Origin: an uncultured Nitrospiraceae bacterium
Lineage (GTDB): Bacteria > Nitrospirota > Nitrospiria > Nitrospirales > Nitrospiraceae
Assembly (NCBI GenBank): GCA_963706325.1
Contig: CAVPLT010000004.1
Span: 1 to 64,000 of the forward strand
Direction: 5' to 3'
DNA: 64,000 nt
Made by a program: the position numbers and the translations under genes. Every line of letters starts with the position of its first letter. The stretch's first letter is position 1. Positions 1,703 to 24,831 of the stretch are shown piece by piece. Below the pieces are notes generated by a model. The model worked only from the letters and a program-made list of their open reading frames with translations, did not search any database and was not told the origin of the DNA.

Positions 1703-1779
1703 TGGTGCCCCCGGCCTGAATTGAACAGGCGACCTTCGGTTTAGGAAACCGCTGCTCTATCCAACTGAGCTACGGGGGC
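1703..1779 (-). tRNA. tRNA-Arg (CCT)
   Basis: Folds as a 77-nt cloverleaf: GCCCCCG/CGGGGGC acceptor, anticodon loop TTCCTAA, T arm GCCTG-TTCAATT-CAGGC, encoded CCA. Confidence 0.97.
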
Positions 1780-1780
1780 A
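1741..1780. repeat. att direct repeat, left copy (tRNA-Arg 5' half)
   Basis: 40 bp identical to 27888-27927. Confidence 0.95.
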
Positions 1781-1804: not shown

Positions 1805-1832
1805 CTCTATTGGCCAGCTGATGAATTGTCTA
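1804..1832 (-). promoter_or_regulatory. Putative island-supplied sigma70 promoter for tRNA-Arg, embedded in the integrase 3' end
   Basis: TAGACA (1832-1827), 17 bp, TAGAGT (1809-1804); the -10 box contains the integrase stop codon; 24 bp upstream of tRNA +1. Confidence 0.6.
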
Positions 1833-2919
1833 GTGTCATTACCGTGTCCGCTTGCTGAAGGTATTTATCTAACTTTGCAGCGGCCAGCGTCAAGTCACGT
1901 TCTTCTATAGAATTGTATCGCTTCCACATCTTCTCAGATTTATGCCCTATGATCCTCATGGCAGTGGCCGTGTCCACACCTGCCCGGCGAAGGTTGGTTG
2001 AGGCACAGTGCCGAAGATCGTGAAACCTGAAATCCTGAAGCCCTGCGGCTTTCAGCGCTGACTTGAAGGCCCTAGAAACCCTTTGAATAGGCTTGCCCTT
2101 GTATAGGAATACCCGGCTTGTCTCAAGCCTTCGCACTTTAGCGAGTTGCTGAAGTGTGGTTCTCACTGCTGGGGTCAACGGAACCTCCCGGCGCGTATTG
2201 GTCTTGGTGTCCACTGCTCGTAACAGAATGAACCCTCGCCTGAGGTCTACTCGGTCCCAGGTCAATTCTATAATCTCGCTGAACCGCTGTCCCAAGTGAT
2301 AAGCAAGCAACAATATCGGGCGGAGGTGAGGCTTGGCGGCCTGATAGAGTCGTGGCCATTCATCCTCACTTAGGACTCTGTCCCGCTCGTTTCGCGGGTT
2401 GGGCATGGCTACCTTTGCCGCTGGATTGCTGGCCACCAGTCCACGTCTCACAGCGATATTGAGGCAATGTTTTAGTGCCGTGTGGTCGTTGTTCACGGTT
2501 TGGAGGCTGGCTGGTTGGCCATCCTTCCTCAATCGCTGAGCGCGGTAGGTCTCAATGTCCTGCGGCCTGATCTCGCTAACAATTTTCCGACCGAAAAAGG
2601 GCATCAGCTGACCGGTGACTCGTTCCACTCGGTCGCGATAAGTCCTAAGCCCTTTCACTTCCTCCAGGCGGAGGTACTGTTTTGCCCACTCGCTGAACAG
2701 TATGGGCCTGGCTTCCTCAGTGAGTATTTTCCCAAGAAGGAGATTGGTTTTGATGGCCGCTTCCATGTCTCGCGCAGCCGTCTTGTTAAGAGTGCCAACC
2801 TTCCACCGTTTGAGCCTCGCACCAGGCACACCCGACGCCAGGCGAAGAGTCTTGCCGTCTTCAGAGGTGAGGACACGGAACGCGACGTAATAGCTATCAG
2901 GTCGTTTCGTCAATCCCAT
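1807..2919 (-). CDS. int: Tyrosine recombinase / phage integrase (island)
   Basis: GQRFSEI, TKT, FHDLRH, IGHK, KRY; start MGLTKRPDSYY chosen by alignment to the paralogue at 579 and SD GAGAGGG. Confidence 0.95.
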   Translation of the reverse strand: MGLTKRPDSYYVAFRVLTSEDGKTLRLASGVPGARLKRWKVGTLNKTAARDMEAAIKTNLLLGKILTEEARPILFSEWAKQYLRLEEVKGLRTYRDRVERVTGQLMPFFGRKIVSEIRPQDIETYRAQRLRKDGQPASLQTVNNDHTALKHCLNIAVRRGLVASNPAAKVAMPNPRNERDRVLSEDEWPRLYQAAKPHLRPILLLAYHLGQRFSEIIELTWDRVDLRRGFILLRAVDTKTNTRREVPLTPAVRTTLQQLAKVRRLETSRVFLYKGKPIQRVSRAFKSALKAAGLQDFRFHDLRHCASTNLRRAGVDTATAMRIIGHKSEKMWKRYNSIEERDLTLAAAKLDKYLQQADTVMTLDNSSAGQ

Positions 2920-3183: not shown

Positions 3184-3458
3184 GATCACTCCAGGAAAAT
3201 TTTGTTGTCTGTATCCCGCCGAGATCTGTCCGATTCCCGCCCTACATCCATGCCGCCTACCAGACGGCCCGGGTTGAAGAGAATTCCACAGCGGGTGCGA
3301 CCCGTGGCCGGAGAGCAGGGGACAGGCCTTCCCGGTCCCCTCCCGGTCTCGCCCCTCCAGGCCTGCCCACTGCGAGAGCCCCGTGCCGCCTCTTCTTCTA
3401 CGCCCCACCCTCGGTTTGTGAAGGGTGGGGCTACATAGTCTTGAAGAAGGAGGCGGAC

Positions 3459-3963
3459 ATGTCCGTTGATAGTTCTCTCGGTTCCTCGAACGGTGGACGG
3501 CCATTGAACCCGGTTCGGAAATACGGTGTACCTCGGTACCGCGTCACGCTCGTGCGGGAGGGCCGTGCCATTCCGGCGGCTGAGTCGGTGCATACATCGG
3601 AGGGCGCGGCCGCGATCCTCCGACCCTTGTTCGCCGGCTTGGACCGGGAGCAGTTCCTGATCTGCGGCCTGGATGCGAAACATGGGCTCATCGGCATCAA
3701 TGTCGTCTCCACCGGGTCGCTGACCTTGGCCATCGTCCATCCGCGCGAAGTGTTCAAGCCGCTGATCCTGATGAATGCCGGCGCCTGGATCTGTGCCCAC
3801 AATCACCCCTCCGGCGATATCACGCCGAGCCCAGAAGATCGTGTCCTGACCAAACGGCTGCGCGAAGCTGGCAGACCTGTTCGGCATTCCGCTGCTCGAT
3901 CATCTCATCCTCGCCGAAGAACGCTACTACAGCTTCGCCGACCAGGGCTGGCCCGGCGCTTAG
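3459..3963 (+). pseudogene. radC: RadC-like JAB domain protein, +1 frameshift near 3870
   Basis: VHPREVFK and AHNHPSGD motifs; the expected C-terminus DLFGIPLLDHLILAEERYYSFAD continues in another frame to TAG 3963. Confidence 0.88.
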
Positions 3964-4088
3964 CGGAGCAGCCGCAACACCCAGGCGGCTCCTGCGGCCA
4001 CTAGCGCGAGTCCAATCGCCGCCGTCCCCCAGGCGACCAGGTCGGTCGCCAACGCATTGCCGATGGTGTGAATTTGTTGCGCCGTCAT
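3960..4088 (-). CDS. Leaderless coat-protein paralogue, 42 aa (MTAQQIHTIGNALATDLVAWGTAAIGLALVAAGAAWVLRLLR)
   Basis: SD AAGGAG; shares DLxxWxxAxIGxAL with mature pVIII at 4178-4393; basic C-terminus. Confidence 0.7.
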   Translation of the reverse strand: MTAQQIHTIGNALATDLVAWGTAAIGLALVAAGAAWVLRLLR

Positions 4089-4143
4089 CCTTGCATCTCC
4101 TTCGCCGTTGCCCTACTCATGCTGTCGATGTGATGCGAGAAAG

Positions 4144-4169
4144 GAGGCAGGCTGCTGCCAGCCTGCCTC
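4144..4169 (-). terminator. Hairpin terminator after the major coat gene
   Basis: Perfect 11-bp stem GAGGCAGGCTG/CAGCCTGCCTC, 4-nt loop, short CTTT tail. Confidence 0.65.
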
Positions 4170-4177
4170 GATGGGCC

Positions 4178-4393
4178 TTACCCGCCCACAATCGCCTTCA
4201 CGCGCTTAAAGGCATAGATGGCCAACGCCACCCCAATCAGGGCCGCCGCCCACAAGAGCAGATCGGCCCGCACCGTGGCCACATCTGCGGAGACCGGAAA
4301 CAACTGCGCGAACGACAACGCCGGTACGCCCAATGCGAAGACCAACGCCATCAGGAACCCGGTGACTCCCTTCACCCATCCCACACCCTTCAT
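4178..4393 (-). CDS. Inovirus major coat protein (pVIII-like) precursor
   Basis: 71 aa: signal peptide ending ALSFA, 42-aa mature chain with acidic N-terminus, TM helix and basic tail FKRVKAIVGG; very strong SD AAGGAGG. Confidence 0.88.
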   Translation of the reverse strand: MKGVGWVKGVTGFLMALVFALGVPALSFAQLFPVSADVATVRADLLLWAAALIGVALAIYAFKRVKAIVGG

Positions 4394-4466
4394 AGAGCAC
4401 CTCCTTGTGCTATCTGGTGGAGTCGTCCACCCGCGCCGCCGGAATCCTCGCCGACGGACGAGCGCC

Positions 4467-4574
4467 TCAGTGACTCTGAGGCAGAATCAGTTTGATGATC
4501 AGCCCCACGGCAAAGCCGCCGAGCCAGAAGATCGCCGTGAAATAGGTCATGGCTTCAATCGCCGGCAGGTCCAT
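4467..4574 (-). CDS. Minor coat protein-like (pVII/pIX-like), 35 aa (MDLPAIEAMTYFTAIFWLGGFAVGLIIKLILPQSH)
   Basis: SD AAGGAG, single TM helix, directly upstream of pVIII. Confidence 0.7.
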   Translation of the reverse strand: MDLPAIEAMTYFTAIFWLGGFAVGLIIKLILPQSH

Positions 4575-4860
4575 AGAACACTCCTTCGCCAATCACCCGC
4601 ATCGATCCGTCCTCGTAGACTTCCGAGACCGATCATTCCATAGCGTCCGGTAATCTGCGCGGCCGTCAGGATCTCGCCGCTGTCCAAGAGATAGCGCCAG
4701 CCTTGACGGTTCGCTGATGAGCCTGCCCCGCCGAGGATGCGCACGGTTCGCTTCGGTGGTGGCGGAGTTGCTGGCGCAGATGGAGACAGACGCCCCAATG
4801 GATTCAGCAGACTGCCCGGCGCCGATGAGGCAGACGGAGGCAGACGTCGTGGTGCCACGG

Positions 4861-5568
4861 TCACTCCAGTCGCAGGGGTGTCCCTTGGTGCTGATTCAAC
4901 GACGACCAGGGCCGCCAGGCCATGAGGGCGATGGCAAAGAGTCCCGCGGCAATGCCGATCGCGATTCGCGCCGATTTGAAGATGGTATGGCTCCGCTTCT
5001 CTTCCTGGATCGCCGCCGACGCATAGCTCGAATAGTAGGCGTAGATCGCCGGTGAATAGGTCCCGACGAAGGCGCGAATGGTCTCGTGATCTTCGGGATT
5101 CCCCCGCACCTTGCCCTGATACTTTTTCGACAGGCCGACAAAGGCCAGCTTGCGAAACTTCACCGTCGCTTCGATCAGTCGCGTGACGCCTTGCGACATC
5201 TGCCGAAAATCCTGACTCATGAGCAGAATATCCACGCCGTAATGCCGATGGGTTTCGAGCCAGCGCAGCAGACCCGGCTCGACCTTCTGCATCGACCGAA
5301 AGACGGTTTGCGCTTCGTCGATAATCACCGCCGAGCCCGGCTCGACATGTGGAAAGGCCTGGAGGACTTCGACGGAGTCTTTCCAGATCGTGATCTGTTG
5401 TTCGAGGGCTTCGAGCTCAATGCCCGTGAACAACGCCAGCCGATCCAGATAAATCCCATCCACCGCGATATAGAGTCGTCGGCCTTGCCGGACCCACGGC
5501 AGGAACTTTTCGCAGATCGCGTGATAGGACTTCCCGGAGCCTGGCACGCCTTCATACAGTTCGATCAT
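4861..5568 (-). CDS. zot: Zot / pI morphogenesis ATPase; C-terminus probably continues in another frame to ~4600
   Basis: N-terminal Walker A GVPGSGKS, Walker B VIIDEAQ, HRHYGVDILLMSQ, TM helix; Pro-rich continuation in ORF 4547-4864. Confidence 0.93.
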   Translation of the reverse strand: MIELYEGVPGSGKSYHAICEKFLPWVRQGRRLYIAVDGIYLDRLALFTGIELEALEQQITIWKDSVEVLQAFPHVEPGSAVIIDEAQTVFRSMQKVEPGLLRWLETHRHYGVDILLMSQDFRQMSQGVTRLIEATVKFRKLAFVGLSKKYQGKVRGNPEDHETIRAFVGTYSPAIYAYYSSYASAAIQEEKRSHTIFKSARIAIGIAAGLFAIALMAWRPWSSLNQHQGTPLRLE

Positions 5569-5649
5569 CGCACTACGCCTCCAGAGCAGCCAGATGGTGC
5601 CCGGCCAAGATCGCCGTCCATCCATAGGCCACACTGACTGGTGTCATGT

Positions 5650-5925
5650 TCATGAGCCCCACCGCACAAACGGAATGGTTTGCAGAATGAACCGGGTTCC
5701 CATGGCGCTCGCCACGATGGCCAGCGCCTGACTCATGCCCGTCGCGCCCAGCACCCACGCATATTGATCAGGAATGACCGGCAGGGTGAGCCCTGCCGTG
5801 CCCATGGTGCTCAAGGTGCTGTCCGCCACGGAAAGCAGGGAATCCCAGATGCCCAAGCCCCAATCGGTGAGCGAGAAGAAGAACTCCTGCAGCCAGCAAT
5901 AGATGAGGGTCAGAATGGCCGTCAT
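5650..5925 (-). CDS. pVI-like minor coat protein (DUF2523-like)
   Basis: 91-aa hydrophobic protein ending RFILQTIPFV, between pIII-like and Zot; ATGA overlap with the upstream gene. Confidence 0.8.
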   Translation of the reverse strand: MTAILTLIYCWLQEFFFSLTDWGLGIWDSLLSVADSTLSTMGTAGLTLPVIPDQYAWVLGATGMSQALAIVASAMGTRFILQTIPFVRWGS

Positions 5926-7150
5926 GTGGTCTGTCCTCCTCCCACGAAGATGATGCGATAGGCGGCGAAGGAGGCAATGGCGATCACGAGCGTGCGGAGC
6001 ACGGTGAAGAACCAGGCCCACTGATTGAAGTCCACTTGCTGGTTGCCGAAGAAGGCCGAGGGGAGCGCAATCACCGGCAACGTCGAGGGCCAGGTCAGGG
6101 ATTTGAGGAGATTCAGGGTGCTGAGCAATCCGCTGCGTCGCCCAGATCGTTTGATGCGCTTGGAGGACGGTTCCGAAGGTTCGATTCTCATGTGTCCCTG
6201 CTGTAGCATGACGTGGTGGCTTCCGTCTCTTCTTGCTTGCGTCGTGGAGCCGTCGGGATTCTGGGTAGTTGTTGTGGTCGTCGTGGTGGTTTGCTGTTGC
6301 GTGTTCTGCTGCGGGGTACTTGCCGGAGGCGCGACACTATCGACGACGATGATGTCTCCCGCAGGCACGGGCTTCGGCTTGACGGTCGTCGGCATCTCAC
6401 TCGGGGACGACAGGCTGCGAGACGGTCTTGTCTGCCGGTTGCGTCGTGCCGGTCGTGCCGACGGGATTGGTATGCTGCTCAATGGACATGCGGAGCCGTG
6501 CGGGACGGTCACGAGATACTGTTGGACCGCCTGCTGGGCGTCGGCGGGATCGAGCGCTCTTGTAGCGGCGGGAGCAGCCCGGGACACCATCCGATGGCAG
6601 ACGTGGACCGGCGACCGACCCAGGACCGTGACGAAGAAGTTGCCGGGAAAGCCGTGCGATGCTTGAAAGGCCGACGACCCAGGCATGCAGATATCGATCG
6701 CCGCGCGCAGGGACTTGCCGGCTGAACTGAATACTGCGTGGGTAATCGTATGAGGTCTGGCCAGTTGGAAAGGTCTGGGTACCAGCATTGTACTGCCACT
6801 TGCCGGTCGGCGGGGTGAGGCCGCCGTTTTGATCGCGGCGAGGTCCGGTTGCGAATAGTACATCTGGGCCAGAACCAATCCGGCGCCGACTCCGAGCGCC
6901 GCCCAGTCCGACTGGACCAGCCACTAATCGAACGGCGAAGGAGCTGGCGGAAGGAGCGAGCGCAGCCGTCGCGACTTGGGACGCCAAGGCCGACCGTTGC
7001 GCGGCCAGATAGGCGATGCGTTCCGCTTGGGCGACGACCCGCGAGTACTGCGTCGTCTCTAGGGCGAGCGATTCGCCCGGTGCAAGACAGAAGGAGACGC
7101 AAGAGTGCCCAGATGAATCCGAGATAATCGGTGAGAGACAACAGTTTCAC
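5922..7150 (-). pseudogene. pIII-like adsorption protein, multiple frameshifts
   Basis: Signal-like N-terminus at 7150, Ala/Gly-rich hydrophobic segment (RLVAGPVG), Pro/Thr/Gln-rich linker (QQQTTTTTTTTTQNP), C-terminal TM anchor; pieces spread over three overlapping ORFs. Confidence 0.78.
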
Positions 7151-7221
7151 AATCGTCCGACTCCGAGGCCGGTGAGGAAGGCCAGTAACAAGACCGCGAC
7201 AAGGATAATGGTGAGATCCAC
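7147..7221 (-). CDS. Tiny TM protein, 24 aa (MDLTIILVAVLLLAFLTGLGVGRL), minor coat-like
   Basis: SD GGGAGG, GTG start, GTGA overlap with the pIII-like start. Confidence 0.65.
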   Translation of the reverse strand: MDLTIILVAVLLLAFLTGLGVGRL

Positions 7222-7242
7222 TGACCTTCCTCCCTCGGTCCG

Positions 7243-7506
7243 TTACTTCAAGACTTCCAATCCAGACAGATCGAAGAAGACCCGTCCGGTTTGTTCGAAC
7301 TTCCGCACTTCGATCGAGGCCCGGGCTTGCTTGCCTTCGGCTTGCTTACAGACGTCAATCAACGGCATCTGATCCTCCGGAATCCCCAACCGCAGAATCC
7401 CCGGATCTTTGCCCTTCACATAGAGATCCACCGATCTGAACACCTTGCCCTCCCGACTCCTCCGTTCCACATAGCCCTGTACCGCCCCCTCCGCTTTGAC
7501 TTGCAT
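7243..7506 (-). CDS. ssDNA-binding protein (pV-like), 87 aa
   Basis: SD AGGAGG before MQVKAEG; beta-rich OB-like pattern; size and position downstream of Rep. Confidence 0.75.
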   Translation of the reverse strand: MQVKAEGAVQGYVERRSREGKVFRSVDLYVKGKDPGILRLGIPEDQMPLIDVCKQAEGKQARASIEVRKFEQTGRVFFDLSGLEVLK

Positions 7507-7728
7507 CGTCGTGCACCTCCTGCATGAGTGAGTTGAATCGGAGTCAGCCAAGCGCCTGACCCACACGCCCCGGCCTTCAGACCGAGCTTTGGCGAGATAC
7601 TGAAATTCGGAGTCGCATTCCTGGCAGCTGACAAACAGGGCGCCCTTGACCCATCGGCAGGTCGCCCCATGGGCGCCACACCCGGGACACCCGCGTCGCC
7701 AGGCTCCGTTATGAAACTGTAAGGACAT
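7507..7728 (-). CDS. Small Zn-ribbon protein (CPGC...CQEC), in frame with the pV-like gene
   Basis: Two CxxC motifs; SD GGAGGAG inside the Rep 3' end. Confidence 0.5.
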
Positions 7729-8702
7729 AGGGCGTCCCTCTCCTCCGTTCCTTCAGCAGGGCGTAGTGCTTCTGCTTCCATTTCTTGGTCCCCGCATAGA
7801 TCAACTCCGTCAAAAATTGATCGCCTCGACAGGCCACCACGACCGCGAGCATCGACGCGACGGATTGCGCGAGCCAGGACGCCACGTCATCCAGCCGCTG
7901 CTGGATGCGTTCGACCACGAGTCGGCACCGCTTAAAGCCTTCGGTCAGGGCTTCCCACCAGGACAGCAATGGCGCCCGATACTTTTCGTACGATTCGGCC
8001 TCTCGCGTGGTCTCTCGGAAATCCACATAGGATCGGAGCACGCCCACGAGAAAGGCCCGCCAATCTTCGGCATCGAGCGTGAGGAGGGCCTTGGCGCAGG
8101 CTTGGGCCCGATCCTGTTTGAATTCCATTTCCCACCGGACTCCGTACGAGGCCGCGTCCTCCCGGCCTTTGGCCTGCAGTTCCAGCCGCTTGTCATAGAC
8201 CCGCAGCATGCTTTGGCTTTCCCGACTGCCGAAGTAGAGCGACTCTCCGGTTCGGACGCCTTCGCGATGATTCGAGGCTTGGATCACCTTGAATTGCTTG
8301 GACCGGCTCACGACCTGTCCGGCCTCCACGGCTTGCCGGACCGTCTCGACTGCGACAGTGGCCTCCCGGTCGTCCAGGGCCACATCGGTCCGTGTCACAT
8401 GGCCCTTCTGCGCGAAGATCCAGGCCAGGACCGTCTTGAGCTTGGTTTCATCCCACTGGGAGACAATCCCGGCCGAGAGATCCACATGCACTTCCTTCGG
8501 ATTGCGAGGCGCACCCGTCCCCAGTTTGCCGACGCCGGTCTTGCCCTGCGTCATGAGCTGGGCGACGGGATACCCGCGAAAGCCGGTCTCACTCTGGAAC
8601 CAGTCACCACCAATCAGTCTTGATCACGTCGTCCACCTCAGCCTTCGGGAGCGTGAAGGCCAGCCAATCGATCGTTTGAGTGAATCCTCCAGAACCCGTC
8701 AT
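7709..8702 (-). pseudogene. Rep_trans family rolling-circle replication initiator, +1 frameshift near 8620
   Basis: IDWLAFT at N-terminus (ATG 8702, SD AAGGGGG), TRTDVALDD, SLYFGSRES, LRVYDK, RWEME motifs. Confidence 0.9.
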
Positions 8703-8730
8703 TTCTTCCCCCTTGGCTTCCGTGCGATAG

Positions 8731-8770
8731 ACGCCCCCGTCTTACGCCCCCGTCTTACCAAGTCGGGGGC
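8731..8770 (-). other. Putative Rep_trans double-strand origin hairpin with 13-bp tandem duplication
   Basis: GCCCCCGACTTGGTAAGACGGGGGC then GTAAGACGGGGGCGT; resembles the CCCCC...TAA...GGGGG nick hairpins of Tn916/ICEBs1; just upstream of rep. Confidence 0.7.
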
Positions 8771-9023
8771 TGGTCGGCTGCGCGCGCCGCCGGCTTTCGC
8801 CGCCAGTCGCGCTGCGCCGTCCCGGCTTCCTCTTGGAGACGACAAAGGACGGACCATGTCCCTTGGTCTGCAGGGCTGCCTTCACCCGCTCCAGGTCGAA
8901 GCGCACAAATCGGCAGAATCGATCGACGGGAATCTCGCCTTTGCGGTAGGCCCGGCGGATCGACTTCGGGCTGACTTTGAGGACGGCGGCCAATTCATCG
9001 ACGGTCAACCATATCTGTTCCAT
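8742..9023 (-). CDS. HTH_17 / excisionase-like regulator of the phage module
   Basis: WLTVDELAAVLKVSPKSIRRAYRKGEIP...VRFD; SD AAAGGAG. Confidence 0.85.
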   Translation of the reverse strand: MEQIWLTVDELAAVLKVSPKSIRRAYRKGEIPVDRFCRFVRFDLERVKAALQTKGHGPSFVVSKRKPGRRSATGGESRRRAQPTSPRLGKTGA

Positions 9024-9100
9024 CACGTCTCCTTTAGGTTGCACGCACGATGTATGGCCGAACCATACGCATCGGCGTGCGGTGGTTAAAGAGGCCGGTT

Positions 9101-9140
9101 CGGGGACAGTAAGGGACAACAGGGGACACTAAGGGACACT
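9101..9140. repeat. Four tandem 10-bp repeats (consensus AAGGGACACT), operator/iteron-like
   Basis: cggggacagt aagggacaac aggggacact aagggacact. Confidence 0.75.
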
Positions 9141-9557
9141 ACGTCATCGCATGCAGAGCGTTCATCAGCACACGAAGAGAAGTCGGAAGCGGGTATGCAA
9201 AAAGGTTGTCTAAACTGACAGTTGTGAAGGGGACGCGATCAAAAGCAGCTCTAGGAGCGGTTATTCAGACATAGGGTTAAATCAGCGATGGAGATGAGAT
9301 AGGGCGAATGGAACTTGGGTGAGTCGAATGGGCGTGCCGCCGCGATCAAAATTATGGCGGAATATTACAAAAATCTGCCCTAGGGTCGAAATACTCGTCA
9401 GTAGGGCCTGACGGCTCTATTCATTGTGATGGCCGCAGGTCTCGGCAGTGGGCAGGAATAGCCAGTGGACCGGCAGGCAAAATCGGTGCAACGCAAAGCG
9501 TGGAGAAGTCGGCAGGAACACCACCAACTAGGCACGACTGCTCGTTGGGCACTAATG

Positions 9558-9955
9558 CGTTTATCTATCCGCCCTACAACACGGTGAATGAAGAATGGGT
9601 CTATAACCTATCTCAGCCGCAGTTCGAGGAATGGATTGGCAAGGTTGTTGGGAAGGAAGAAGAGGAAGCGAGTCGGCACGATAAGTGGTGCTGCATGATG
9701 CTTCCGAGGCTGCAATTGCTCAGATAGGTTTTGCGCGATGATGGAGCCCATCTTCATTTCGATCGATGACAATGAAGTTGCCAACTTGCGCGCGCTGATG
9801 GACAAGGTTTTTGGCGAGACCAATTTCATTGCTACGGTCATATGGCAGAAAAATTTCTCACCCAACAAATCTGCCAAATGGGCATCCGGCGACTTGAGCG
9901 CACGCAATCCATACAGTAAGGGTATTTATCCCATTACATGCCCCGATGGTCGCCA
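9558..9955 (+). pseudogene. Type III R-M methyltransferase (Mod) remnant
   Basis: YPPYNT (degenerate DPPY), SRHDKWCCMMLPRLQLLR, ISIDDNEVANLRALMDKVFGETNFIATVIWQK; in-frame stop, frameshift and truncation. Confidence 0.85.
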
Positions 9956-10471
9956 GTCTCCTCCAGGCTCTCGGGGCCTTCGCGAAGTTAAGGCGCTGAT
10001 TACGAGAGACCCCAGCCGAGTACAGCTATCGGCTTGCCGAGCATTCTCCTGGACATTCTGCCAAGGGAGCAGACAACCGAAACGACCTGTGCTAACGATC
10101 CCGCCCGCCTTCGCATGCTGAAAATCCCATTCTGTCCGGATCCCCAGCGGCCGGCCACCGATCGTTCCAGGAATATCTGTCAGGGCGGATTAAGCGAAGC
10201 ATGCGAAGAAGTGCCACCGAGCCCAGCACCATATTCCTGACATGGAGATCGCGAGGGGTGCCATACGCCACTAGGACTTATCCCAGGTGGATGGTGTACT
10301 GTTGTCACGTACCCTGTCAGATAATACGGGTGGTAGGTGGGAGGGAGGGATTGGAATGTTAATGCAATGTGTGCTTGGGCAAGCCCGTTGAAAAACAGAA
10401 TGAGCGCACGTTTGATCGCCACGTGTCGGTCGACTCGGAATTTCAATTCTTTTATAAGATGGGTGGTTTAG

Positions 10472-12796
10472 ATGAACATCACCGGACAGGAGCGCGCCGA
10501 GGAGGCCGTACCTGAAAGTGGCGCGATTTATTGCTCACTCATGGAGATCTTAGATCAGGGCTGCTGTGTGATCGAGGTGTTGTTCGAACAGGAGCAGCCA
10601 GTCGACTATCGATTTTTGGAGACTAATCCATCCTTTAATGAACAGACAGGACTCGCTCATCCTCGGGGCAAGCGCATGCGGGATCTGTCCCCTCAGCACG
10701 AACAACATTGGTTTGATGCCTACGGCCGTGCCGCGTTAACGGGCGAAGTTCAACGGTTCCAGAACGATGCCGTGCAGCCGGGGCGACGGTACGAGGTGTT
10801 CGCCTTTCGCGTCGGGAAGCCTGCAGATCATCACGTGGCGGTCGTGTTTACGGACATTACGGCACACAAACAGACGGAGCAAGCGTTGCAGGCCAGTGAA
10901 CGGCGTCTCCGCAGCATCATGGACCAACTTCCTGCCGGGGTCGGCATCATGGATAAGACGGGCGCTTGGCTGCTGACCAACGCACAGATGGAGAAACTAA
11001 GCCCTTCAGCGCTCCCCGGGCAGACAGCGGAGGGCGTGACGGACCCAACGTGGGACGAGCACGGCATACCGATATTGCCGGAGCAGTGGCCTAGTCGTCG
11101 GGCGTTGCGCGGCGAAACGGTCATCCCAGCGGTGGAGACGCGTCACGTCGGTGAAGCGGGGGAAACATGGACGCGAGTGAGCGCCGCACCTCTTCGTGAC
11201 GACACAGGAAACCTCGTGGGCGCCACCGCAATGGTGTACGACATCACGCACGAGAAACAGGCCGAGCAAGCGTTGCGAAGGAATGCTGAGACCTTTGCAA
11301 CACTGGTTGAACAATCACCGCTCGGTATTTACTCAGTCGATTCGCAGTTCCGGATCCGGCACGTCAGTGCGGGGGCCATGCCTGCGTTCCGCAATGTGCA
11401 GCCACTCATCGGTCGCGATTTTGCTGAGGTGATGCATACGCTCTGGCCAGACTCCTTTGCAAACGAAGCGATTCAGATCTTTCGCCGCACCCTGGAGACG
11501 GGGGAACCCTATTTATCACCAGGCCTCACAAACGTGCGCAAAGACATTGGCGCGATTGAGTCCTATGAATGGCAGACCATCCGCGTTACCCTCGCCGACG
11601 GACAATACGGTGTCGTCTGTTACTATTTCGATACGACACGTCTCCAGCAAGCCAACCAGAACATTCGCGAAAGTGAAGCGCGCTTCCGCGCCTTAGCCAG
11701 CGCCACAAAAGATTCCGTGTATCGCATGAATGCAGACTGGTCCGAGATGCGCCATCTGGCCGGACGGCAGTTCAACCCCGATGAGGGCCACCCTGGTGGC
11801 TCATGGATGGATCGAATCATTCCCGCAGAGGATCACCCGGACGTCCTCGAAAATATTCGACGAGCCATCGATTCTAAAAGCGTGTTTGAGCTTGAGCATC
11901 GTGTCATTCAGACGAACGGCAAAGTGGGCTGGGCGTACTCGCGAGCCATTCCGATTTTGGATGAGCAGGGTGAAATTCGCGAATGGTTCGGCGCAGCCAG
12001 CGATGCGACGGAACGGAAGGAGATCCAGGATCGACTTGAACAGTTTACGGAGGAACTGGAAGCACAAGTCACACACCGTACTGCAGAACTGCTTCAGTCA
12101 CAAGCCCAGCTACGGGCGTTGGGTACCGAGCTGAATCTTGCCGAACACCGCGAACGTCAACGTTTAGCGGAGGAACTGCACGACCATCTGCAACAGCTCC
12201 TGGTATTAGGCAAGTTGACCATCGGCCAACATAAGCGACGAGGCACGACCGACTCGTATTCGGCGGAAGCGATGGCGAAGGTCGATGACCTGCTTTCTGA
12301 CGCCTTGAACTATACTCGAACGCTGGTCGCTGAATTAAGTCCACCGGTGCTCACGGATCACGGCCTCGCGGCAGGATTGAGATGGCTCGGCAACTATATG
12401 AAGAAACATGAGCTAACCGTCACCGTGCTTCTTCCAGCTGAACAGATGCCGGCGTTACCTGCTGATCAGGACATGATGATATTCCAATCGGTTCGAGAAT
12501 TATTGATTAACTGCTCGAAGCACGCCGGAACGGGACAGGCGTCTGTCATGGTTGAGAAACAGGCCGATCTCCTTTGCATCAAGGTGATCGATCAGGGGGT
12601 TGGCTTTGAGAGGGCTGCAAATGCTCCCACTGGAGAACTCTCCTCCAAGTTTGGTCTCTTCAGCATCCGGGAACGGATGAGAGCGCTGGGTGGCTCCTTG
12701 AGTATTCAGTCGGCTCCTGGCATGGGTACCACGGCGACGCTGAGATTGCCGCTGACACCAAAACCCTCTCAATCAATTAAAATGCCCGTGCCTTAA
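10472..12796 (+). CDS. Multi-PAS sensor histidine kinase (HisKA_3, NarX-type), cytoplasmic
   Basis: Repeated PAS/PAC (DIT) motifs, ELHDHLQQ H-box, ELLINCSKHA N-box, DQGVGF, FGLFSIRER, GMGT. Confidence 0.93.
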   Translation: MNITGQERAEEAVPESGAIYCSLMEILDQGCCVIEVLFEQEQPVDYRFLETNPSFNEQTGLAHPRGKRMRDLSPQHEQHWFDAYGRAALTGEVQRFQNDAVQPGRRYEVFAFRVGKPADHHVAVVFTDITAHKQTEQALQASERRLRSIMDQLPAGVGIMDKTGAWLLTNAQMEKLSPSALPGQTAEGVTDPTWDEHGIPILPEQWPSRRALRGETVIPAVETRHVGEAGETWTRVSAAPLRDDTGNLVGATAMVYDITHEKQAEQALRRNAETFATLVEQSPLGIYSVDSQFRIRHVSAGAMPAFRNVQPLIGRDFAEVMHTLWPDSFANEAIQIFRRTLETGEPYLSPGLTNVRKDIGAIESYEWQTIRVTLADGQYGVVCYYFDTTRLQQANQNIRESEARFRALASATKDSVYRMNADWSEMRHLAGRQFNPDEGHPGGSWMDRIIPAEDHPDVLENIRRAIDSKSVFELEHRVIQTNGKVGWAYSRAIPILDEQGEIREWFGAASDATERKEIQDRLEQFTEELEAQVTHRTAELLQSQAQLRALGTELNLAEHRERQRLAEELHDHLQQLLVLGKLTIGQHKRRGTTDSYSAEAMAKVDDLLSDALNYTRTLVAELSPPVLTDHGLAAGLRWLGNYMKKHELTVTVLLPAEQMPALPADQDMMIFQSVRELLINCSKHAGTGQASVMVEKQADLLCIKVIDQGVGFERAANAPTGELSSKFGLFSIRERMRALGGSLSIQSAPGMGTTATLRLPLTPKPSQSIKMPVP

Positions 12797-13365
12797 GGCT
12801 TAGTTTAAAAGTTTTAGGGACCTGTACATCTGGACTGAATTTCTGCTGACATTGGGAGCAGGTGGCTATGTTCAACACATTCTTCTGAAACTCATTCGTC
12901 AAAAGAGACATGTCTTGATTGCGCACGAAACGTGTTCCTCGGTTCGACAAATGTTGGGTTACAACCCCGCGTGAAGTCCCATATTCATTCCTCCCATTTC
13001 TTGGAAGACATCTTTGTCAAGTGGTCTAGCTAAGATCGCTCGACCCACCGTACGGGTCTCGTGAGGGCGCCCATCATCGCGAGCATGCAGATCGCGAGAA
13101 GCAGCAGCAAGCTAGCGGCGAGAAAGAGCCATCCTTTCAATTACTGTGTGAGCATCGCGGAGAGTCTAGTGAACTCCTGGGCCGAACGGACCTAGGAAGA
13201 CCTCTAGCGGCTCGGCAAAATCGGAAGACTTCGCAGCGAAGACTCGCTCCCCCATAACTGTTTCCTGACAGCCTCGAATCCAAACAAACCGTTCGCACAT
13301 GTCCCGACCCAGAAAGCGTATACTCGGCTCTCGCTCCTAGGCCGTTAATGCTAGAAGGACGCCGC

Positions 13366-14139
13366 ATGACGCACCAAGAACGCATCCGTATTTTTGACTC
13401 TCAGGGTGAGGCCTATAAACAGGCCTTTCAAATCTTCCTTGACCACACCGACCAAAAACGCAACGCCAAGCAGTGGCTTCAAGCCGTGGTCGAGAGATTG
13501 CCAGCACGCAACGTGTTTATCGACGCAGGGGCCGGAAATGGAGAGGTCACGCAGGCGTTTGCTGGTGCCTTTACGCGCACCATTGCCATCGAGCCAAACG
13601 TCTATCTTCGGGAACAACTCGAACGGAGGCTCCCGAATGCAGAGGCCATTGGCCAACCGATTCTAGCCGCTCACCCTGCTGCGCAGGGGGACTTGGTCCT
13701 CTGCTCGCATACGTTCTATTACATTCCTCCCGAGGAGTGGGTCGCTCATCTCGAACGGCTGGTATTCTGGATGGCGCCAACGGGCGTGACCGTTGTGGTG
13801 TTGCAGCATCGGGAGAGTGGATGCATGAACATGGTGCATCACTTTTTCGGCCACCGGTTCGAATTGCGCCGGACCGCCGACGCTTTCCGGGCCAAGCATG
13901 GAGACCGCTATGATGTCGTGACGACGATCGACCCTGCCCACGTCCAGACGGCAGACCTGAACAAAGCCTACGCCGTCGCCGAATTTATGCTCAACTTGTT
14001 GGAGATTAAGTACGCCCCGACCAGGCAAGAGGTCGAAGCCTACGTGCAGGCCCATTTTGCCACAAAGGACGGGGGGTACCGCATCCCGGTCGATCAAGAG
14101 TTTCTCCACATTAGCCACCGACAAAGCTCGGATGGGTAG
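13366..14139 (+). CDS. Class I SAM-dependent methyltransferase
   Basis: FIDAGAGNG motif I, AIEPN, DLVLCSHTFYY. Confidence 0.9.
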   Translation: MTHQERIRIFDSQGEAYKQAFQIFLDHTDQKRNAKQWLQAVVERLPARNVFIDAGAGNGEVTQAFAGAFTRTIAIEPNVYLREQLERRLPNAEAIGQPILAAHPAAQGDLVLCSHTFYYIPPEEWVAHLERLVFWMAPTGVTVVVLQHRESGCMNMVHHFFGHRFELRRTADAFRAKHGDRYDVVTTIDPAHVQTADLNKAYAVAEFMLNLLEIKYAPTRQEVEAYVQAHFATKDGGYRIPVDQEFLHISHRQSSDG

Positions 14140-14585
14140 GCTTCAGGTGGTAGGAGGTGCAGTCAGGAGAGGGTGTCCTCGACGTTGGCCTGCAATCCCA
14201 ATGTTAAGGCGCTGGTCACATGCCGTGGTCAGATAACGTCCATGGCAAGAAGGATGACAGAGCGGCAGGTTCCCATTCGAGGAAGGACTGCGATGACGGC
14301 ACCACCAGCACAAGCCAGTCCATCGGCTCGACCTGTCCATAATTTCAGCAATGGGGCAACACCACGCACCTCCTCTGCGAAAATCTGGGATTCATCGTCA
14401 ACCGAGCGGGCTACGCTTTGAACGTGAAGCCCATCAAAATCGGGTTCCTTCGATTGCGGCGGTTCGTCGCCGAAATGTTTCATGTGGAAGGGTCGGTCTC
14501 GGTGATCGGATTGACCGCATCCGTGATTGCCCTCCTGCTGTTCCGCGTTGCCATTTTCTTGGTCATGGGATGGTAACGAGAACGT

Positions 14586-14972
14586 CTACTTGGCAAGTTT
14601 AATGGCTTGTCCGGTGCACGTGATACGTTCCCAACAACCCTGGAAGAGGGTCCTCCCGCGGGGAGGGTCGCATTTCAAATTTTTGATGCCCTCGGCCCCC
14701 TGCTGCTTGGCCCAGTACTTCGCCTCGTTCATAGCATCGGTCTTGGTCGCCGGACGGTCGCCCCTCTTATATTGGCACGACGTCCCTTTCACACTGTCAA
14801 TCACGACATGCTCTTTTCCACTCAGGTCACCTTCCTGCAAGATAGGTAGCTCGAAGATAGCCTCGCGCTCTTCCCGTGGAAGCGAATCCATCTTGTTGAC
14901 CGGCGCCGTCCATCCAGCACACCCTCCTGCCGTCAAAAAAACAGCTACGAGCACACTACGCCTGATGGTCAT
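14586..14972 (-). CDS. RcsF-like lipoprotein
   Basis: Lipobox AGGC; VKGTSCQ...C...GCW...CTGQAI four-Cys pattern as in RcsF. Confidence 0.65.
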   Translation of the reverse strand: MTIRRSVLVAVFLTAGGCAGWTAPVNKMDSLPREEREAIFELPILQEGDLSGKEHVVIDSVKGTSCQYKRGDRPATKTDAMNEAKYWAKQQGAEGIKNLKCDPPRGRTLFQGCWERITCTGQAIKLAK

Positions 14973-15207
14973 GACTCCTCCACTGGGTCTTGAGAGACGA
15001 TGCTGAATACCTTCCACTGATGGACGTGACGGTAAAGGAACCTAGACAGATTCTCTCGTGCCACCTATGTGGCCCGGCTCTGTATTGATGCCGTCGTCTC
15101 GTCCGCTCACCCAGGCCGGCACATCCGCCGATAATAGGGGACGGCCTGATGGGTATGGGAAAAATCTAATTATAGGGGAACTTCTGTTGGTGGGCCATGC
15201 CGCGCTG

Positions 15208-16389
15208 CTATTTGGCAATCGTGATACTCGGCACACCCAGTCGAGGGACTTCCGTCATGGTCATCTGAAACAGCAGGTACAGTAACTGGAAGGCGTCGCG
15301 GTTCCAGCGCGCCAGCGGGCCGTCGGTCCGTACTGCGTAGTATGTTCCCTGAGACTGGATTGCGAGATCAGCCTCCGATGGACTGCTATCGGACCGCACC
15401 ATCTCCATGGTGTACACGGGATTTTCAGCCACGTCTGGCGTGAGGGGTGCTTTGTCGACGTGGTATTCCCGGTCCTCGCCGAGTGACCGTGCAACAAAAT
15501 GGAGCATGGCGTGAAAGGACCGGAGGCGAAAATATCCCCTCATGGGATACTGTCCTCCCAAGTAGCCTGGGCGAATGTCAAAGGAGACATCGTTGAGCCG
15601 CTCCACGTCCGGTTCCTCGCTTAACTGCGCCCGTTCCTCAGCCGACAGCGTCGCAGGGTCATAATTGGTGATGCGGATGCGTCCAGGCACCGATTTCCGC
15701 AGGGTATAGGTGTTCTCGCGTTGGTTGTAGGTGACGAGATATTCCTTTTCCAAGGCGATGAACCCCTCAGCCGTCACAGCATTCGCGGGGATCACCCAGG
15801 TTCGCTCGCTGTTCCGCGGTTCGACGTAGAGATGGTTGTCATCCTGCATGGCCGAGAGGTGGAGGACGACACGTCGAAATCTCTCATACCCGAGGCGATC
15901 GGCGGGCATGTTACGGAAGGCCACCTCTTCACCGTTCTGTTGCAGCCGCACCTCCTGCGCCATCAAGCGCAGCAGGAGGTCAATGTCGAACCGCTGCCGG
16001 AGCAGGAGGATGAGTTTGGCCTCATTGAAGGGCGTCAGCAGCCGCTTGGCAAATTCTTCTCCCTCGATCGGGACAATGCTAATCGTGGGATTTTCGGCCA
16101 CACTGCCCCCGAAGATCGGCACCAACGACCGCCCAGCGTCTCCGGTGAGCGTCGGCGTCGCGCCGGCACTGACTCGGAAATCGAATGTCGCCGCGACGTT
16201 CGACACGCCGGTGAAGTGGATGGGTTGGTGGCGTTCAGCACGAGCGATGTTGACGAGAAGTTGTTTGGCAACGGCGTCCGTGATGGCCTGATCGTAGGCC
16301 ACCACGGCTCGGTTGAGCGTGATGGGAGAGAGACACCCAGACAGGGGGAGCGCACAGCAACATGCAAGGATCGCAGTCGTTGTCTTCAT
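15208..16389 (-). CDS. Hypothetical lipoprotein
   Basis: Signal peptide with lipobox LSGC; long clean ORF. Confidence 0.75.
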   Translation of the reverse strand: MKTTTAILACCCALPLSGCLSPITLNRAVVAYDQAITDAVAKQLLVNIARAERHQPIHFTGVSNVAATFDFRVSAGATPTLTGDAGRSLVPIFGGSVAENPTISIVPIEGEEFAKRLLTPFNEAKLILLLRQRFDIDLLLRLMAQEVRLQQNGEEVAFRNMPADRLGYERFRRVVLHLSAMQDDNHLYVEPRNSERTWVIPANAVTAEGFIALEKEYLVTYNQRENTYTLRKSVPGRIRITNYDPATLSAEERAQLSEEPDVERLNDVSFDIRPGYLGGQYPMRGYFRLRSFHAMLHFVARSLGEDREYHVDKAPLTPDVAENPVYTMEMVRSDSSPSEADLAIQSQGTYYAVRTDGPLARWNRDAFQLLYLLFQMTMTEVPRLGVPSITIAK

Positions 16390-16890
16390 AGGAATCCTGT
16401 AGTCTGGGATGCCTGATACCAACGAAGAGCCCGAATGTACTTAATTTCTGACGTACAGCGCAACTCGCGTCTCTTCATGAGTTGCCTCTCCGTCGTTTCA
16501 AGGATGTAGGTAGGACGCTCCGCAATGTGTGGGGGTGTTGGCAAATGAATTGACTAGCGATGGCCTCAGGCTCAGCCGAAGAGGAGTAGGAATGGCTGAC
16601 TCGTTAGGTATCCGGAAAAGCCTTCACGACTGATGAAGGCGCGCTCGCCAAACTAGCGAGTAGTCCCTTACAGCTGTGGCCGTGATCTTTCCAAAACTGT
16701 TTGTGTCGCGAAAGGAGCGACTGCTCATCGTGATTCCGTCCACTTACGTTAATTAAACCCGTGGAACCGTCGGGCATTTGTAGGGGAGCAGCCCCAACCC
16801 TGAGGGTATGGTTCGCAAGGCGCGGACCCGCTAGCCTTGAATCAGTCGCAGCGGGTTGCCATACTCCTAAGGCTCCATACGAGGTGCGTC

Positions 16891-17541
16891 ATGGATACGA
16901 ATCTTGGACAGGTTTTTTATGGCACGGCGGGTATTGTGGCACTTCCCTTGGCCGCCTGTCTGCTCGTCAGCGGCTGTTCCTCCCTGCCAAAAGGAGAGCT
17001 TGCACTCGATCTTGGTATCAAGGACCGCGGCGTCGCCTCCTGGTACGGAAAGGCGTTTCATGGCAAGCTCGCGGCCAATGGGGAAGTCTTTGATATGACG
17101 GCGTTCACTGCGGCGCACCGCAAGCTGCCGTTGGGAAGCGTCGTGCGCGTCCTTAACTTGGAGAATGGCAAGTCAGTACACGTCCGGATCACTGATCGTG
17201 GTCCCTATGTCATCGGTCGCATGTTGGACCTTTCTCAAGCCGCGGCGCGAGCACTGGACATGGTCGACATGGGGACGGCGGCCGTCCAGGTTGAAGTGAT
17301 CGGCGCGCATCGCGGTCTATTACCAGTCCCCGATCGGCAGTGGGTTTCCATCACCGGCCTGGTGTTCAGTACCGATAGTCGCCCCAGCAGCAAGCGGTCT
17401 CAGAAAGGCGTGGAGCCACCCAAGGTCGCTCTCCGCCTCATGCCGCAAGAAGCGTTGTATGTGCGACGTGAGCGCCGAAGCGGCAGCGTGCTGGCCGCCG
17501 ACCATCTGGCACACAGAGACGTCCCCTCGCTTCTCGTCTGA
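16891..17541 (+). CDS. rlpA: RlpA family lytic transglycosylase lipoprotein (island copy)
   Basis: Lipobox [26 protein letters not shown] (DPBB); paralogue of 37966-38625. Confidence 0.92.
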   Translation: MDTNLGQVFYGTAGIVALPLAACLLVSGCSSLPKGELALDLGIKDRGVASWYGKAFHGKLAANGEVFDMTAFTAAHRKLPLGSVVRVLNLENGKSVHVRITDRGPYVIGRMLDLSQAAARALDMVDMGTAAVQVEVIGAHRGLLPVPDRQWVSITGLVFSTDSRPSSKRSQKGVEPPKVALRLMPQEALYVRRERRSGSVLAADHLAHRDVPSLLV

Positions 17542-17798
17542 TACGAATTGGAAGCCATGCTTCATCCTGGTCCCTAGCAGGTTCGCGGATCTCCACCTTC
17601 CGTCTTGATCTCCTCGTCGGATATTCGTATGACCTCCTCTCCATGCCCCTTCGGAGGTACGCCCTCCGTGTGATGGCACGCGGACTGTCCCTCGCTATGC
17701 TTACACCATGTAAGGACGACGAGAGGAATCGGCCCTGGCATACTTGCCGAGTCTTTGAGGTACCACCCACCCGAGGCCGCGATCGGAAGGAAACGCCC

Positions 17799-18119
17799 AT
17801 GGACAATCTGGACCCGCATCTCACGATCCTGCTCGAGGATTTCGTCCGCCTCTGCCCGGGAGACGCCCCCTTGGAAGAAGAGGATTGGACCGGCCTGTAT
17901 GAAATTTGTTTATTCGTCCATGAGCAGGCGATTCCCTGCACGCCTTCGTCCCTCCGGGAGTATTTACTCGAACACGGATGCTCAGCGCGCAAGGCGACGT
18001 ATCTCGGGCATCAGTTCGGCCATTTTTTCCATATCCTCACGCTGCGCGACCGACGGAACCCGTCATCGGCCAAGCCGCGTGCAAAGAGAGAGAATGTGGC
18101 GAACGAGGAGGCGGTATGA
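17799..18119 (+). CDS. Hypothetical protein
   Basis: SD AAGGA before MDNLDPH; ATGA-coupled to the next ORF. Confidence 0.6.
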   Translation: MDNLDPHLTILLEDFVRLCPGDAPLEEEDWTGLYEICLFVHEQAIPCTPSSLREYLLEHGCSARKATYLGHQFGHFFHILTLRDRRNPSSAKPRAKRENVANEEAV

Positions 18120-18415
18120 AGCGGGCGGACGAGGTTCGGGCGGAGCACAAACTCGACACCATTACACACTACCTGTTGAAGGCGCTTCCCGGTGCGGCAA
18201 TTGTGTCGCATCGGAGGCACCGAGGGGACTATCTCGTGACGGTCTGCTCGCCGGCCCTTGAGGATACCCATTGCCTCCACATCGCGAAGACCTTTCTGAA
18301 CCAGACGCATCCCACGGTGGAGGAGTTGCCTGGCCTGTTTGACCAGCTTCAACTGGCGCGGGTCCTTCGAGAGCGGGGGGAGTACCGCCTCGACCTGCCA
18401 GATCAACTATCATGA
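18116..18415 (+). CDS. Hypothetical protein
   Basis: SD GGAGG, ATGA overlap with the previous stop. Confidence 0.6.
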   Translation: MKRADEVRAEHKLDTITHYLLKALPGAAIVSHRRHRGDYLVTVCSPALEDTHCLHIAKTFLNQTHPTVEELPGLFDQLQLARVLRERGEYRLDLPDQLS

Positions 18416-18744
18416 CGATGGAACGACGGTGTTCCCGTCTCCGAGTCATCCCTTCCACGCTCAATAGCACGGTACTTTCTACCAGGTAGTTCTTGTCCCG
18501 CGGTGGGTGCAGGCCACCGGCCCACAGGGGAGCTTGGCGAGTGATTGCATGAAAAGAGGATGGAGACGGCTGCGAAGCGTCAGTGAGTGGCGACCACCGG
18601 TACGAGGTACCTCAAGAGAGGGCGGTTTAGGACTTTCGCTGCCTTGGCACAGGCGAGAGGCTGGTCTACGCTGCGGGACATGAGAAAAGGAGGCACCGAC
18701 CGCCTTATCGCAGAGTTCCTCACTCTCCCCCTGACGATTCAGCA

Positions 18745-18927
18745 ATGGACGACAAACATGACCGGTTGTCGCGGCTACACATCAATAGCCTATCGGACGC
18801 GATCAGCGACCTCCACCGTTATACGACGCTCTGGAAGAAACAGGAACTGTCCCGGCGAGGGGCATCTGGGCGGAACAAGGGAAAGCGAAAAACGACAATC
18901 CTCCGTCGTCGGCTAGAGGACCCGTGA
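18745..18927 (+). CDS. Hypothetical small basic protein
   Basis: ORF only, weak SD. Confidence 0.3.
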   Translation: MDDKHDRLSRLHINSLSDAISDLHRYTTLWKKQELSRRGASGRNKGKRKTTILRRRLEDP

Positions 18928-19087
18928 TCAAGGTCGACGAGTGGGGATCGAGCATGACACAGCCTCGTTTAGTACGCCCACACGCGACCGCGCCACTCAT
19001 CGCGATCTTCCTGAGCGTCAGCCCTGACGATCATTCTTTTGGAATTACACGTTCAACAGCCTACGACGGCTTGGGCGGTCCTTCCAC

Positions 19088-19333
19088 ATGGTAACTGTTC
19101 GCCTCACGCTTCAGGTCAAACGCAACACCTGGCACATCGTGGCGTATCACATAGACTCCGCGCAGGAGGAGCAGCCGGTCATTATGCTGGGATATCTCAG
19201 ACGGAAGTTTATTTCCCCAGAGGCCGCCATGACCTATGTTAGGCGCACTGTCCTGGGTCGTCTGAAACTCCAAAGGCCTGATGCGACCGATGCCGATGTA
19301 GTGTGTGACGTGACGGTCAGGAGTCAGCAATAA
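19088..19333 (+). CDS. Hypothetical protein
   Basis: 81-aa ORF with globular composition. Confidence 0.45.
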   Translation: MVTVRLTLQVKRNTWHIVAYHIDSAQEEQPVIMLGYLRRKFISPEAAMTYVRRTVLGRLKLQRPDATDADVVCDVTVRSQQ

Positions 19334-19404
19334 TGTCACCTGAATGGCCAGGCTTCGAATCCAGTGTGTGTGAGAGCCTGTCCACGTCGCTCGGCGGCGT
19401 AATC

Positions 19405-19506
19405 CTATCGCCGCATATGCCGAATCACGCCGACCACAACGCCTTCAATGTGGAAGCTATCGCCCTCCTTGACGGTCGTGGGCTTCATCGTGTCGTCCGC
19501 CGGGTC
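19405..19506 (-). pseudogene. LexA/S24 peptidase C-terminal fragment
   Basis: RPADDTMKPTTVKEGDSFHIEGVVVGVIRHMRR* resembles the LexA C-terminus; no N-terminal part visible. Confidence 0.6.
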
Positions 19507-19722
19507 GTTGTTATTCCTCGTGGTTTCCCGCCCTTTTAAGGCGAGGTAGTCGAGCGCCAAATGCAAACGACTTTCCTAAATTTCCCGCAGGATGAGCGGC
19601 AAGGCCAGGCAGGATTATGACCCTCTCCATGGGCGGCTGCCATCTTGAAAGCAGCGTGTGATCAGCAATTTTATAACACGGGCTTCGTGCCATTGGTTCA
19701 TTATAGACAGATGTTCACTTCG

Positions 19723-19869: not shown

Positions 19870-19927
19870 CTCGTCCTCCGATCAATAAATACGACGGTCC
19901 CGGTGCCCGTCTGACAGCAGCTGTCAG

Positions 19928-24799: not shown

Positions 24800-24831
24800 T
24801 CACTCAACTGCATTCCACAGAAACGATCATC

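Follow-up and report, generated by a model that had tools for sequence, protein, structure and literature searches.

The 64,000-nt window analysed here, from the genome of an uncultured Nitrospiraceae bacterium, carries a filamentous-phage (inovirus) gene block inside a 26.2-kb island that is bounded by attachment (att) repeats at a tRNA-Arg(CCT) gene. This gene block is widespread in nitrite-oxidizing Nitrospira, and its gene content and conservation mark it as almost certainly belonging to a functional inovirus family. The island is very probably the unit of excision and transfer. We propose, with the evidence evenly poised, that this cargo-laden tRNA-associated prophage may spread by extruding the whole excised island as a single-stranded DNA (ssDNA) filament.

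Genes were identified by Pfam and PHROG profile matches and by Foldseek searches with fold models, with intact relatives as reference. The original prediction had placed in 3960–9140 a helix-turn-helix (HTH) gene, an origin, Rep_trans, a Zn-ribbon, pV-like, 24-aa transmembrane (TM), pIII-like, pVI-like, Zot, 35-aa TM and major coat genes, a terminator and a coat paralogue; all were present in that order, on the minus strand (Table 1). Its assignment of the block to the inoviruses was likewise borne out. In the sense of Roux et al. (2019), the block has a pI/Zot ATPase with a TM anchor (PF05707, E 3.6e-30; phrog_197, E 1e-42), a rolling-circle Rep (PF02486, Rep_trans, E 7e-37; YDK motif invariant) together with an ssDNA-binding protein, and a major coat of 30–90 aa with a TM helix. 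The model of the 87-aa pV-like protein (predicted local distance difference test score, pLDDT, 94) matched the oligonucleotide-binding (OB) folds of ssDNA-binding proteins (SSB) in the structure search, and the pVI-like protein matched phrog_306 (E 2e-9). No secretin was found in the phage block and two secretin genes lie elsewhere in the same genome, in keeping with the earlier suggestion that a host secretin would be needed.

The Nitrospira host proposed from the sequence was supported. Zot had relatives in 29 loci of Nitrospira-labelled genomes, at 83–97% identity; a further 13 close records were found in IMG/VR. Zot was present in 21 of 39 genus genomes, with up to four copies each, in 19 of 75 family genomes and in 24 of 401 phylum genomes. 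No phage record covered 80% of Zot, and the best matches showed 25–33% identity. The gene order, including radC, was unchanged in relatives wherever sequence covered it. It also recurred in every one of 18 additional loci of the family, with Zot identities as low as 43%, and two loci from other families lacked it. In this order the major coat gene stands after Zot, originally pointed out as a departure from the established arrangement. Among 63 distant viral loci, 26 were inspected by eye: a coat-like open reading frame (ORF) preceded pIII in 22 and followed Zot in none, the other four being unclear or not covered. All 11 core genes were under purifying selection, with ratios of nonsynonymous to synonymous substitution rates (dN/dS) of 0.06–0.18 (0.37 for the HTH gene), the strongest being on the 42-aa coat gene and pVI (0.059). 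Eleven of 19 copies were fully intact, and the other eight were scored as having one or more broken genes, in one case because of a gap of N. The middle of pIII (alignment columns about 150–295) was of unrelated types among otherwise close copies, which suggests exchange of a putative receptor-binding part, and L011 was without most of pIII.

Two different coat proteins are encoded. The 71-aa protein begins with a predicted leader and ends in a basic C-terminus. Phage_Coat_B (PF05356) was matched by 10 of 19 coat homologues (best E 4e-5) and a PHROG major coat by 6 of 19; the 71-aa protein of the window alone matched neither, and the coat profile gave no meaningful match among PDB sequences. 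The 42-aa protein proved to be a paralogue of the 71-aa coat, as had been claimed (hhalign 95%, E 1.6e-8), and has no leader; the stop codon of its gene overlaps that of radC on the opposite strand. It resembled the PF05356 Coat_B cluster (score 0.90), and its top PDB match was the Pf3 coat, at a weak E of 1.2. With a hairpin 3′ of the 71-aa gene kept throughout the family and a separate ribosome-binding site in front of the 42-aa gene, the 42-aa coat is likely to be made at a lower level than the 71-aa coat. Other coat paralogues, noted in L111 (before Zot), P0020, P0032, P0033, P0055 and L120, comprised coat-like proteins with acidic C-terminal tails and, in one distant inovirus, four leaderless coat-like ORFs, so multiple coats are not peculiar to the Nitrospira lineage. 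The literature search found nothing on paralogous inovirus coats with genome organization.

The prophage was originally delimited to 3960–9140. This boundary did not hold, because the att-bounded unit runs from 1738 to 27927 and includes radC, xis, the integrase and 18.5 kb of cargo in addition to the core. Among 29 relatives checked at the flanking major facilitator superfamily gene, a full tRNA lay exactly at the distal place in two and 1 kb off in one, and no tRNA was present in the covered stretch in 26; L191 and L219 represented empty sites. Since half of the tRNA is repeated and relatives carry the intact tRNA at the distal site, radC, xis, integrase, core and cargo constitute one 26.2-kb insertion. 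A displaced 5′ tRNA fragment upstream with the integrase inside, the 5′-fragment type of Islander (159 of 3919 islands), was found in the window and five related loci. Att repeats 23 nt or longer enclosed 12.9–35.2 kb (median 25.4 kb) in 17 of the 22 extended loci; two serine-recombinase loci had 12-nt candidates only, and three were without an att candidate. Att sites at the core edge were found in none of the extended loci and were rejected. The origin-like hairpin between HTH and rep occurred once per island in 13 of 13 and 9 of 9 loci, and its GC stem and TAA loop are of the type described for Rep_trans/MOBT in the available part of PMC9371924. A second origin releasing a core-only circle was rejected, as none was found with up to three substitutions allowed. 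On the 3′ side of the same tRNA-Arg, we observed a second island (window 338–1747 and G000:C5:334393-349249) with no virion genes seen; its integrase (579–1697) is 63% identical to the phage integrase, one tRNA thus being used from opposite sides.

A whole 29-kb island was recently transferred between two divergent genomes. G001 and G294 have in common a 29,244-bp att-to-att island at tRNA-Lys(TTT) with three differences, in flanks that are 70–83% alike. Two of the three differences are in the displaced att copy of G294, and the restored tRNA half of G294 equals that of G001. Judged from these alleles, the swap is the pattern of site-specific integration, which misassembly would hardly produce. 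Within the 29,244-bp island, no conjugation genes were found. A scan of 84 of the 121 called cargo ORFs of the islands found no member of the integrase, relaxase, transposase or type IV secretion system (T4SS) families, and a T4SS with coupling protein, as in integrative and conjugative elements (ICEs) of the MOBT type, was found neither in these ORFs nor in the core.

Integration modules are exchanged between cores. Integrases grouped by tRNA target in a FastTree tree of 27 integrases, from which a motif filter had dropped some Lys-site integrases, and Zot grouped by host lineage. An own integrase matched to the tRNA site, as in Pf-type prophages, was found at targets comprising Arg CCT/TCT/TCG, Gly CCC/GCC, Lys TTT/CTT, Phe, Ser TGA, Thr TGT/CGT and Ala CGC. 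The Ala loci carry a large serine recombinase, and 5′-side insertion characterizes the Arg CCT/TCT and Gly CCC group. On the integrase side, conservation ends about 165 nt upstream of radC. The cargo of other islands includes type III restriction–modification (R–M), SNF2 helicases, SIR2, HEPN, Cu-ATPase, resistance–nodulation–division (RND) efflux, RHS and cobalamin genes. Cores located at different tRNA genes, and with recombinases unrelated to each other, had the same cargo next to them (L013/L032, 6.4 kb at 87%; G424a/L019, 2.3 kb at 88%), and different cargo stood at the same site (window versus L032). A soil contig spans rep–HTH into the cargo (8342–9940; 14 differences, one gap), and cargo pieces with no differences occurred in two sequencing studies, one of which may be the source sample. 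In an RNA run, contigs of relatives covered the core, most deeply at pV and the coat genes; such contigs reveal neither strand nor level and carry no weight in the argument. A short ORF (9738–10121) where the window cargo begins looks by eye like a fragment of a type III R–M methylase. A cobalamin synthesis and uptake cluster was seen in L077 and L006 1–6000, within a 33-kb att-bounded phage island (att match 23 nt).

Whole-island extrusion is favoured because, with one origin and one att pair, rolling-circle replication would copy the entire island, and filament length follows DNA length. In the proposed mechanism, xis and the integrase would excise an att-to-att circle, and Rep_trans would nick the hairpin between HTH and rep and copy the full circle. 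The single strand would be coated by pV and extruded by Zot through a host secretin, to be wrapped by the 71-aa coat, which would be highly made with the terminator behind its gene. The leaderless 42-aa paralogue would arise by read-through and serve as a minor or second coat; pIII/pVI would cap the filament end and choose the host, in which the integrase would insert the circle at its tRNA. Where copies reside together, recombination within their conserved core may exchange integration modules and cargo. We consider the chances about equal that the filament is, or is not, the vehicle for the whole island. More tentatively, since a filament has no capsid size limit, circles of 13–35 kb with defence, metal-resistance, RHS or cobalamin clusters may be packaged in two-coat filaments that pass between nitrite-oxidizer species and act as helpers for virion-less Rep islands sharing the origin.

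Several observations weigh against whole-island extrusion. The data examined showed no virion, ssDNA or circular form, and terminal repeats indicating a circular form were present in 0 of 28 short records checked. Among the loose read ends listed (depth 3–6), no attP junction was found; no sequencing run represented the strain in depth (best share 0.27). The islands exceed att-delimited Pf prophages in size, and Pf loci with distant duplicate att sites are known (available part of PMC7549136); tandem arrays may therefore account for some of the distal att copies, of which L016 and L017 have two. The pIII-like protein, the identity of which is tentatively suggested by its expected layout, gave a weak Foldseek match to Pf3 G3P (E 0.016, on a model of pLDDT 61). 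The cargo scan for mobility families covered 84 of 121 called ORFs, and some large ones were not among them. Finally, sister islands with an integrase, an HTH gene, a 50%-identical Rep and an origin identical at 24 of 26 positions have no virion genes (three inspected). Near-full Rep matches at 48–52% numbered 55 in 39 genomes, the virion-less type being commoner than the phage type; islands therefore spread here without a coat of their own. Such islands were observed at L002 (G000:C1, tRNA-Val), L023 6800–11400 and L032 13800–18236, and could be satellites of the phage, or integrative and mobilizable elements.

These sister islands, widespread as they are, lend weight to a possible alternative in which the island moves whole by another vehicle, be it a conjugative helper for which Rep_trans would act as the MOBT-like relaxase, transduction by a big tailed phage or the uptake of DNA, and the filament genes serve shorter or rare particles or some other benefit. 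According to the available parts of PMC6499999 and PMC9371924, Rep_trans is the MOBT relaxase domain, with the same type of nick site; jumbo phages can transduce integrase islands (available part of PMC12595487); and ComEC was found in 5 of 5 genomes tested, as also in 10 of 14 controls. VirB4-type helpers occurred in 4 of 39 genomes. However, this family was not detected in G294 and P-loop_TraG was found in neither G001 nor G294, the virion genes are all under strong purifying selection, and one origin per island leaves rolling-circle replication without a shorter template. It is unlikely that the 6-kb core from HTH to the radC block is alone the phage, inserting into or recombining with pre-existing xis–integrase islands of non-viral cargo. 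Core conservation does end sharply, near-identical cores lie beside unrelated integrases including serine recombinases, and IMG/VR cuts its records at about 5 kb; yet no second origin, recombinase or terminal repeat was found at the core edges, core, integrase and 22 kb of cargo moved together, and cargo stays with the core across sites. Most improbable, in our view, is a domesticated module of inovirus origin with a non-viral role in the membrane or in secretion. The lack of particle evidence and the broken copies would agree with domestication, but selection maintains the whole set of Rep, origin, SSB, the two coats, pIII, pVI and Zot, and pIII varies in its middle as receptor-binding proteins do.

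Compared with intact relatives (Rep 330, pIII 422, Zot 335 and RadC 167 aa in L006), the window copy has frameshifts in all four of these genes, and as assembled it is probably non-functional. Host genes of the same assembly showed one frame change in 55 genes (67 kb), a count that compensated shifts can escape, and this rarity suggests decay. Consensus error is suggested by the predominance of single-base insertions, by the location near the contig end and by a second allele on contig C5 that is identical for 1.2 kb, then 72–96% alike, and more damaged. Both decay and a local consensus or assembly error are possible. The second int–xis–radC–coats allele (L001 16600–20000, at the end of G000:C5) breaks off after the coat gene into unrelated-looking genes, by eye miaA-, extracytoplasmic-function sigma- and kinase-like; a chimeric join is possible. 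Elsewhere in the genome, a solitary 29-codon remnant of the pV gene lies at L003 6733–6819 (G000:C7). In L100, about 2500–4000 past the Zot start, radC is split by a 505-aa ORF, which we take to resemble a group II intron reverse transcriptase. The names pVII/pIX and xis and the term signal peptide used in Table 1 and the text are our presumptive labels, from general knowledge of inovirus proteins.

Table 1. Features of the att-bounded island in the window
Feature	Position	Strand	Remarks
tRNA-Arg(CCT), integration target	1703..1779	-	island on 5′ side of tRNA
Proximal att repeat, 5′ half of tRNA	1738..1780	-	42/43 nt identical to 27885–27927
Tyrosine integrase	1807..2916	-	intact; groups with other Arg/Gly 5′-type integrases
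Excisionase-like HTH, 72 aa	2965..3183	-	labelled by position and sequence
Conserved non-coding block with 10-bp-stem hairpin (3402–3431)	3293..3458		conservation stops near 3293, start of swappable xis–int module
RadC-like JAB gene	3459..3963	+	member of conserved core; frameshift near 3871
42-aa leaderless coat paralogue, Pf3-coat-like	3960..4088	-	own ribosome-binding site; dN/dS 0.059
Terminator-like hairpin separating the coat genes	4144..4169	-	
71-aa major coat precursor	4178..4393	-	predicted signal peptide ending A-x-A/Q, 42-aa mature chain
35-aa TM protein	4467..4574	-	probable pVII/pIX-type tip protein
pI/Zot assembly ATPase	4555..5568	-	out-and-back frameshift in C-terminal part (about 4890–4630)
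pVI-like minor coat	5650..5925	-	intact
pIII-like adsorption protein	5922..7150	-	several frameshifts; intact form (L006) 422 aa
24-aa TM protein	7147..7221	-	probable pVII/pIX-type tip protein
pV-like ssDNA-binding protein, 87 aa, OB fold	7243..7506	-	
Cys-rich Zn-ribbon-like ORF	7507..7728	-	3′ end variable; Pfam Zn-ribbon at E 0.016 only
Rep_trans rolling-circle initiator	7709..8702	-	frameshift near 8618
HTH_17 regulator	8742..9023	-	E 4.8e-8
Double-strand-origin-like GC hairpin, TAA in loop	8746..8770	-	one copy per island; 13-nt tandem duplication in window copy
Tandem TGTCCCC-type repeats 5′ of HTH	9102..9141		common to most close relatives
Semi-conserved motif about 400 nt upstream of HTH	9403..9419		outer limit of core conservation
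Cargo, about 18.5 kb	9430..27884		PAS histidine kinase, methyltransferase, DPBB lipoprotein, ferredoxin, NuoB-like and unknown ORFs
Distal att repeat	27885..27927	-	full tRNA at this place in relatives

The lineage is present in over half of the genus genomes searched, yet no isolate was found in the literature. If the whole island is packaged, inovirus genomes would reach about twice the largest att-delimited Pf, and key nitrifiers in which conjugation genes are rare would have a route of gene flow for restriction/helicase defence, copper/heavy-metal efflux and B12 synthesis. The islands allow the movement of cargo islands that have no transfer genes to be tested directly, and possibly offer a gene-delivery tool for a genus that is hard to manipulate. 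If another vehicle moves them, they still contain a widespread, oddly ordered, two-coat inovirus with wrong database boundaries.

The statement in the original prediction that no characterized inovirus of Nitrospira was known to it stands in one respect, as literature searches found no paper describing the lineage and no isolate of a Nitrospira filamentous phage. In another respect it must be narrowed: a same-order relative had been catalogued, which, with the 13 IMG/VR records, makes the phage as such less novel. One Nitrospirae inovirus, Sp_2711355007_Ga0155970_173, is listed by Roux et al. 2019 (PMC6813254, supplementary files 4 and 5) in ‘Amplinoviridae’ Sf_3; the available main text contains neither ‘Nitrospir’ nor ‘gene order’, and the supplementary notes may discuss order. 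The IMG/VR record with the taxon id and length of this entry (L186) has the same order, HTH–rep–pV–pIII–pVI–Zot–35-aa TM–coat, with Zot 50% and pVI 63% identical, and the Sf_3 placement applies to this syntenic relative only. Unlike the window island, the record ends inside the coat gene, without the 42-aa paralogue, radC, xis, integrase and att. No description of the coat-last order, the leadered and leaderless coats, the fixed radC or the island size was found in the literature examined; subscription papers may discuss order.

Among the closest known systems, Pf prophages, in the available part of PMC7549136, likewise have a conserved core, five site-specific integrase types at tRNA/tmRNA genes, accessory genes, a 33–36-aa ORF after Zot and CoaB/Pf3-type coats. 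However, Pf has the coat before pIII, a length of 7.9–17.9 kb and integrases that are 40–62% alike and all of tyrosine type, whereas the Nitrospira islands carry two coat genes, both after Zot, as well as radC, are 12.9–35.2 kb long, use at least 11 tRNA targets with recombinases of both tyrosine and serine type, and in some cases are inserted on the 5′ side. The Pf-type gene order (coat before pIII; Pf core genes) was accordingly absent from the window block. Vibrio CTX-I inoviruses with hypervariable regions also carry defence and other cargo, but this cargo averages 1.9 kb and integration is by host XerCD (available part of PMC12715192), in contrast with about 5–28 kb and an element-encoded recombinase here. 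ICEBs1, Tn916 and ICESt3, with the MOBT relaxase, share the integrase–xis island, the PF02486 nickase, the YxK motif and the GC hairpin with a TAA loop (available parts of PMC6499999 and PMC9371924). The Nitrospira islands differ in that no T4SS or coupling protein was found, in a separate HTH gene and in a GT-AA rather than CT-AA loop, and a filamentous-phage module stands where these ICEs carry the conjugation module. As far as its genes tell, the element functions in the manner of a Pf-type integrating inovirus, and its layout as an island resembles that of an ICE.

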